From assembly GCF_037042905.1 (NCBI RefSeq), contig NC_087250.1, forward strand, positions 10,294,001 to 10,358,000: a stretch of 64,000 bases of DNA, in the 5' to 3' direction. Positions 23,038 to 23,794 of this stretch are shown here, in pieces (the stretch's first letter is position 1; each line of letters starts with the position of its first letter). The DNA is from Lytechinus pictus. Lineage: Eukaryota. The notes below the pieces were generated by a model. That model worked only from the letters and a program-made list of their open reading frames with translations. It had not been told where the DNA came from and made no database searches. Made by a program: the position numbers and the translations under genes.

Positions 23038-23178
23038 CTGGAACTGTATGATTCTTTCTTGGGAGAGGCAGAGGTACATCTTGTCGGTGTCTTTCATGTA
23101 GAAGGCACATTTGTGGAGTTGTGAAACCGGGTCATCGGCGTCCATCAGAGCCATTTGCTTATCAACTTTCCGAATTAT
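23038..23178 (-). CDS. Su(H): Su(H) coding exon 8 (IIRKVDKQ...[13 protein letters not shown]...[13 protein letters not shown])
   Basis: Signature [14 protein letters not shown] acceptor, CAG|GTATTG donor; 141 nt, phase 0-0. Confidence 0.97.
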
Positions 23179-23794
23179 CTGGAGAAAGGCAGAAACGATC
23201 AAAGAAATGCGAAAAAATTATTGTGTCAACTTTGCGGATTATCTGGAGAAAGGCAGAAACGATCAAAGAAATGCGAAACAATTATTGTGTCAACTTTGCG
23301 GATTATCTGGAGAAAGGCAGAAACGATCAAAGAAATGCGAAACAATTATTGTGTCAACTTTGCGGATTATCTGGAGAAAGGCATTAACGATCAAAGAAAT
23401 GCGAAACAATTATTGTGTCAACTTTGTGGATTATCTGGAGAAAGGCAGAAACGATCAAAGAAATGTGAAACAATTATTGTGTCAACTTTGCGGATTATCT
23501 GGAGAAAGGCAGAAACGATCAAAGAAATGCGAAACAATTATTGTGTCAACTTTGCGGATTATCTGGAGAAAGGCAGAAACGATCAAAGAAATGTGAAACA
23601 ATTATTGTGTCAACTTTGCGGATTATCTGGAGAAAGGCAGAAACGATCAAAGAAATGTGAAACAATTATTGTGTCAACTTTGCGGATTATCTGGAGAAAG
23701 GCAGACACGATCAAAGAAATGCGAAATAATTATTATGTCAACTTTGCGGATTATCTGGAGAAAGGCAGAAACGATCAAAGAAATGTAAAACAAT
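23162..23794. repeat. Tandem array, 64-bp unit x ~10, spanning the intron 7 / exon 8 acceptor
   Basis: Unit starts at 23162, 23226, 23290, 23354, 23418, 23482, 23546, 23610, 23674, 23738; near-identical units, no spacers. Confidence 0.98.

Follow-up and report, generated by a model that had tools for sequence, protein, structure and literature searches.

We have identified, directly in front of coding exon 8 of the Su(H) gene of the sea urchin Lytechinus pictus, a tandem array of ten 64-nt units, each of which carries the end of intron 7, a complete acceptor and the beginning of the exon. Tandem repeats spanning intron-exon boundaries have been named "mirages" in amphioxus, where they were described in Adh3, troponin C, the globins BflGb6 and BflGb9, and PGBD5 (PMC3087553, PMC3902484). 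We consider it likely, at a probability of roughly 70%, that the array is a minisatellite of the mirage type at the intron 7/exon 8 boundary, of which only the last copy is used and which is tolerated without having a function of its own. The array is probably near-neutral and a further case of a known repeat class; the new part is that boundary duplications cluster at five exons in a row, in an essential single-copy gene of the Notch pathway.

The window, by which we mean the whole 64,000-nt stretch that was analysed, holds the only CSL locus found in the genome. Genome-wide, matches to the Pfam domains BTD (two) and LAG1-DNAbind (three) were obtained at the Su(H) locus only. Mapping of the Lytechinus variegatus protein gave 11 coding exons on the minus strand, running from 41250 to 16047, and the best relative of the last exon among 25 matches was the L. 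variegatus "recombining binding protein suppressor of hairless-like" (94% identity, 100% coverage). Exons are numbered here as the coding exons mapped with this protein, and the exon following the array is accordingly the eighth. This number, and the position of the exon 7 donor (Table 1), had been given correctly in the first-pass annotation of this DNA.

Tandem Repeats Finder reported the array with 96% matches, 0% indels and a score of 1168. With up to three mismatches allowed, nine matches to the 64-nt unit were found, where 100 shuffles led to an expectation of zero. The units lie head to tail, are of minisatellite size and consist of 47 nt of the end of intron 7 joined to the first 17 nt of exon 8, exact or nearly exact; the first-pass annotation had proposed this composition, as well as the ten tandem intact acceptors, all of which were located. 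In the intron part of the unit, a TTGAT resembling a branch point lies at -21 and is accompanied by a pyrimidine tract and CAG, and all ten acceptors read ctttctccag/ATAAT, with the G of the AG at 23755, 23691, 23627, 23563, 23499, 23435, 23371, 23307, 23243 and 23179. From -30 to +5 they are indistinguishable. The unit includes the intron-exon boundary together with its splice signal, and the tenth copy, at the edge, continues into exon 8 and forms the authentic boundary. Compared with the consensus, unit 1 has six differences, unit 2 has three, units 3 to 9 have between none and two, and unit 10 has three, which makes a homogenised centre with divergent edge units. The recurrent unit variants are CpG-to-CpA changes, found at -31 in three units and at +8 in one.

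A DNA search of the 811.7-Mb genome, which passes over very common words, returned three places for the 64-nt unit, all of them inside the array, and no other copy; a dispersed repeat or transposon was rejected as the origin of the unit on this ground, within the reach of such a search. The antisense of the array (23125-23898, plus strand) contains an open frame of 257 aa and is nearly open in all three frames; it has no RNA depth. Searched against 1.84 billion representatives, the frame had five matches at E <= 0.001, all of them to repetitive proteins at 24-31%, with no copy of the array among them. This frame is a by-product of a unit that lacks antisense stops.

Table 1. Positions in the window of the Su(H) gene, the exon 8 array and the other boundary duplications
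Feature	Position	Strand	Remarks
Su(H)/CSL gene	16044..41250	-	11 coding exons; sole CSL locus found in genome
Coding exon 8	23038..23178	-	141 nt, 47 codons, phase 0 at both ends; Pfam BTD, 79.8 bits
Coding exon 7	25444..25558	-	Donor G at 25444, followed by gtaagt
Tandem array at E8, 64 nt x 9.9	23162..23794	-	Intron 7 end + exon 8 start; 96%; 9/9 upstream AGs intact
Authentic exon 8 acceptor AG (tenth copy)	23179..23180	-	RNA reads cover exon to 23170 and do not continue into array
Nine upstream pseudo-acceptors	23243..23756	-	All with intact AG and pyrimidine tract; use of any would add 64n nt and introduce a premature stop
E7 duplication	25544..25889	-	Repeats about 153 nt from the intron end with 13 nt from the exon; two copies, 180 nt apart; 82%; AG of upstream copy intact
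E6 duplication	26585..26792	-	111-nt unit x 1.9; 90%; upstream copy cag changed to caa
E5 duplication	27247..27650	-	Intron part about 111 nt, exon part 100 nt; 78%; upstream copy without AG, with 13-nt deletion
E5 second copy	29003..29104	-	Acceptor + first 100 nt; 84%; AG intact; 3' breakpoint as in other copy
E4 duplication	29499..29570	-	Copy of last 65 nt with donor, 534 nt downstream of the real one; 78%; GTAAGT now GTTAAT, GT retained
E9 internal piece	19159..19223	-	80%; in intron 9; second, shorter copy at 18939-18960

When the nine upstream acceptors were translated in the frame set by exon 7, all nine ran into a stop, and the claim of the first-pass annotation that only the last acceptor, at 23179, gives CSL protein therefore stands. 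Its further statement that the upstream acceptors meet TGA in the next unit is right for eight of the nine, which reach TGA after 26 codons; acceptor 23435 gives TAA after 16 codons, owing to a variant in the unit that follows. On its transcribed strand the array has a single open frame, of 39 aa. Rare use of an upstream copy would thus lead to a premature stop, and such leaky transcripts should be degraded by nonsense-mediated decay. A pseudo-exon inside the array is unlikely, because the GT dinucleotides of the unit occur only in poor donor contexts. A recursive splice site was rejected, since every AG continues with ATAATC or ATAATT and never directly with GT. Tandem acceptors of the NAGNAG type were rejected as well, the spacing being 64 nt and not 3, and each alternative shifting the frame or meeting a stop.

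Among the runs listed as containing sequence of this stretch, none was catalogued as RNA. Three raw stranded, rRNA-depleted RNA runs from one study (X21, X22 and X23) and a DNA contig set (X4) were mapped to 22200-26700 at 90% likeness. In X21, X22 and X23, respectively, the depth at 23062 in exon 8 was 17, 27 and 22, and the number of reads over 23170, which lies 8 nt inside the exon, was 1, 18 and 12 (31 in total). Exon coverage was confined to the expected strand. The bin 23106-23256 had mean depths of 2.97, 10.6 and 7.22, approximately what its exon half alone would give, and across 23257-23709 the depth was 0 in each of three bins in all three runs. No array sequence was thus seen in the RNA at 23257-23709 in any of the three runs, and the unique intron bins were also at about zero. 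Provided that the animals of the RNA runs possess the array, the share of mRNA containing it is below about 1.5%. That the last acceptor is used is read here from depth and not from counted junctions, and for the nearest upstream acceptor, 23243, the bound goes down only to roughly 10%, because this acceptor shares its depth bin with the exon. The exons of the RNA runs differ from the window at several silent sites, and the RNA is uninformative on the presence of the array in those animals, since the unique intron bins are near zero too. The depth of 0 in 23257-23709, against 17-27 on the exon, points towards undisturbed regular splicing as it is known from mirages, a comparison that depends on the array genotype and does not separate acceptor 23243. 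Likewise, the measurable use of an alternative site that goes with regulated unproductive splicing was absent from the three RNA runs, a weak negative, since decay would lower the signal and the comparison again depends on the array genotype.

The same reads showed a polymorphism at 23170. The third codon of exon 8 is CGG in the window, and CGC was found in 18 of 18, 8 of 12 and 1 of 1 RNA reads and in the X4 contig. The base of most reads is the form present in all nine upstream units, so the exon-like part of the units matches a common exon allele, and the G of the window at 23170 is an allele that is either minor or private. The stretch of intron 7 immediately upstream of the array (23710-24917) is composed of high-copy dispersed repeats; inverted and skipping joints are numerous there, RNA depth goes up to about 590 on both strands, and the summed contig word depth is about 5e5.

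How the array came into being and how it is read by the spliceosome can be proposed in a few steps. A tandem duplication would have happened to span the intron 7/exon 8 boundary and would then have been amplified to about ten copies. The origin may lie in slippage or end joining at TTGA(T) with an 8-nt filler, followed by unequal exchange. In fact, TTGA(T) stands at both breakpoints of the ancestral unit and eight extra junction bases are common to units 2-10, which suggests one microhomology-mediated duplication and subsequent unequal exchange. A reverse-transcribed lariat intermediate, which would have units starting at a branch point, was also considered as the origin and rejected; the array does begin at the A of the TTGAT situated 40 nt upstream of the first AG, but this origin has no general support, and the duplications at E5 and E7 start 111 and 153 nt upstream.

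As for acceptor choice, the spliceosome would use the last copy alone, as exon definition would demand: behind it come the remainder of exon 8 and, 141 nt downstream, a donor, while the other nine copies give way within 18 nt to pyrimidine-rich intron sequence and have no usable donor. At positions +18 to +64 after the real acceptor the purine fraction is 0.49 and one PTB-like tetramer occurs, compared with 0.28-0.30 and six such tetramers after the upstream acceptors. Judged from these features of the DNA, exon definition is a plausible reason for the skipping of nine sites, because only the tenth copy has exon-like sequence and a donor 141 nt away. A simple 5'-to-3' scanning for the first AG would choose the first copy and does not predict use of the last, whereas exon definition does. 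The array is in this respect a natural experiment in 3' splice site choice, offering ten acceptors of which the one touching the exon is apparently used. Masking of the upstream acceptors by RNA structure was rejected, the array RNA folding no better than its shuffles (z = +0.88), 17 of 20 of which folded at least as well.

The array is not the only boundary duplication in the gene. When the exons plus flanking sequence, and likewise the whole window, were compared with themselves, local duplications appeared that overlap the boundaries of E4 to E8, five exons in a row, with identities of 78-96%, four of them at acceptors (Table 1); those at E4 to E7 had escaped the first-pass annotation. The two upstream copies of the E5 acceptor are now separated by a 163-nt satellite. 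In the X4 contig set, one contig joins 25543 directly to 25724 and lacks one 180-nt unit (25544-25723) of the E7 duplication, so the copy number of this duplication differs between genomes. Two of the four older pseudo-acceptors have lost their AG, compared with none of the nine upstream AGs of the array; the intact AGs of the array could reflect its youth and homogenisation, or constraint. The satellite itself, in intron 4 at 27836-28921, has 5.3 copies at 89% and is overlapped by a row with a 192-nt period.

Could the array or its ten-unit length have been produced by the assembler, in a very heterozygous genome? This would fit with the fact that no sequencing run contained more than 0.24 of the sampled words and that none of the reads or contigs was observed to bridge the array. 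Moreover, an amphioxus mirage was mis-assembled in a draft genome, and the PGBD5 repeat numbers differ between assemblies, according to the published descriptions (PMC3087553, PMC3902484). Nevertheless, the units bear substitutions of their own, in a pattern that is typical of real arrays and that looks like real evolution and not like assembler stutter, and four older, diverged duplications of the same type in Su(H) cannot be assembler stutter. The X4 contig that covers exon 8 (164 nt, from a DNA run with another organism label) ends at 23191. The real exon and the repeat unit first diverge at base 23161, and the contig end lies exactly 30 bases above this point; the other end of the contig is unbroken, contrary to what a simple SNP bubble would give. 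The word length of Logan assemblies is 31 letters. If words of this length apply, a break of the word graph at 23191 is what at least two copies of the boundary would produce, and run X4 would then hold at least two. Although no read or contig was observed to bridge it, we therefore regard the array as probably real, and an assembly artefact or a wrong copy number as improbable. As its alternative to exon definition, the first-pass annotation had suggested that array length tunes the amount of productive Su(H) mRNA. Under this proposal the upstream acceptors would be decoys that set the dose, some transcripts being spliced to them and lost to nonsense-mediated decay. All nine do keep AG, pyrimidine tract and the branch-point-like TTGAT, all nine lead to a premature stop, and the dose of a gene present once in the genome could matter. 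On the other hand, array sequence was absent from the three RNA runs, though rRNA-depleted libraries usually retain some decay substrates; the described arrays of the same kind give no aberrant mRNA in the published accounts (PMC3087553, PMC3902484); and the older E5 and E6 copies without AG suggest decay and not maintenance.

Dose tuning is for these reasons improbable to us, and it found no support, as no array-containing RNA was seen and the array belongs to a described class of tolerated repeats (PMC3087553); of the interpretation given in the first-pass annotation, the anatomy holds and the skipping of nine look-alikes fits the RNA depth. Perhaps, instead, the ten pyrimidine-rich motifs form a functional intronic element, a platform to which a splicing enhancer or repressor, for instance PTB, binds and so regulates the inclusion of exon 8. 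The six PTB-like tetramers per unit would be in line with it, and skipping of exon 8, with its 141 nt and phase 0 at both ends, would keep the frame. But no sign of a skipped exon 8 was seen, this exon codes for a conserved part of the BTD domain, and the motif is simply that of the duplicated acceptor; such a role is very improbable. The reading as a tolerated mirage minisatellite with a single used copy is hence the one that we retain.

As a control for the frequency of boundary duplications in Su(H), the same pipeline was applied to 30 Pkinase and 30 Helicase_C coding matches from other parts of the genome, 60 in all, together with 1500 nt of flanking sequence on each side; about half of the kinase controls are intronless genes. 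Local duplications cover 5.8% of the 206 kb of control sequence, and none overlapped any of the 60 control matches, even with 60-nt padding. In Su(H), 5 of 11 exons are overlapped, against 0 of 60 in the controls (Fisher p = 3.5e-5). When E8, which drew attention to the gene, is left out, the figures become 4 of 10 against 0 of 60 (p = 2.3e-4), and p = 2.3e-3 against the 30 helicase exons. The split of four acceptors to one donor is not significant. As to internal controls from other genes in the window, none of the 92 frames of at least 70 aa outside Su(H) matched Pfam. Boundary duplications at 5 of 11 exons exceed what a purely random process in the genome predicts. Yet 47% of the 6.9 kb from 23162 to 30099 lies under local tandem duplications, including the 163-nt satellite; at such a local density an overlap with five exons is not surprising, and it is the regional density that needs explaining. 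We hold it to be unlikely, though deserving attention, that mirages are non-random and that a process tied to splice sites or to the locus, mutational or selective, repeatedly duplicates exon boundaries. If this is true, and if amphioxus and echinoderms share the same bias, it would be a general and undescribed source of splice-site duplication, and possibly one from which highly polymorphic marine invertebrates gain introns or exons.

The closest known systems are the amphioxus mirages. In BflGb6, as described, the unit consists of an intron's 3' end together with the 5' portion of exon 2, haplotypes with six and with three units occur, concerted evolution of the central units goes with divergence at the edges, and RT-PCR indicated normal splicing (PMC3087553). 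In lancelet PGBD5, such repeats are reported at two consecutive exons, 3 and 4, and their number differs between assemblies (PMC3902484). According to the same two reports, the repeats in BflGb6, Adh3, troponin C and PGBD5 leave splicing undisturbed (PMC3087553, PMC3902484). The Su(H) array shares with the mirages, as these accounts present them, a repeated splice signal that spans the boundary and a homogenised centre with divergent edges, with BflGb6 also the layout of intron end plus exon start, and with PGBD5 the occurrence of several such repeats in one gene. It differs in its host, which is an echinoderm and not a cephalochordate, in its dimensions (64 nt and ten copies, compared with 150-160 nt and 3-6 copies in BflGb6 as described) and in that five consecutive exons of Su(H) are affected. 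A full-text literature search yielded no sea urchin mirage and found the term in the two amphioxus papers only (PMC3087553, PMC3902484). The Su(H) array extends mirage repeats from amphioxus to an echinoderm; they may be common where marine invertebrate genomes are very polymorphic, and may routinely mislead gene prediction.

A resemblance also exists to human F7, whose intron 7 is reported to contain a 37-bp VNTR, a polymorphic minisatellite of which the first monomer spans the donor boundary (PMC1557585). There, the first of 5-9 identical donors is used and 4-8 pseudo-sites are silent, and mutagenesis showed that the others are functional (PMC1557585). Similar arrays on the donor side are listed for IFI 6-16, CBS, LMNB2 and PDGF (PMC1557585). 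As in the F7 description, the copy that appears to be used in the Su(H) array is the one that touches the real exon. However, the donor is repeated and the first copy used in F7, whereas in Su(H) the acceptor is repeated and the last copy used, so that the Su(H) array is a mirror image and not a member of the F7 type. Besides, the pseudo-sites of F7 are reported as functional by mutagenesis, whereas the pseudo-acceptors of Su(H) are known from their sequence. The intron-gain model of Rogers likewise starts from a local tandem duplication that includes splice signals (PMC3265369); in that model the duplicated signals are used and a new intron results, while no new intron has arisen in Su(H).

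Several other repeats and frames were observed in the window. A dispersed element of about 75 nt is present in at least four copies with 92-97% identity and in both orientations (29888-29962, 29643-29717, 31305-31379 and 3637-3712), in introns 3 and 4 as well as upstream, and has the look of a MITE. A repeat of about 128 nt immediately follows exon 1 on the downstream side, at 40897-41024, with copies at 49761, 5604, 50355, 40423, 6217 and 38690 (81-91%). On the minus strand, an open frame of 461 aa at 58734-60116, in the most G+C-rich part of the window (0.44), has no Pfam match and may be an intronless gene or a transposon remnant. Finally, a (TCTA)n microsatellite in intron 1 (37677-38147) comprises about 104 copies and shows a higher-order period of 134 nt.
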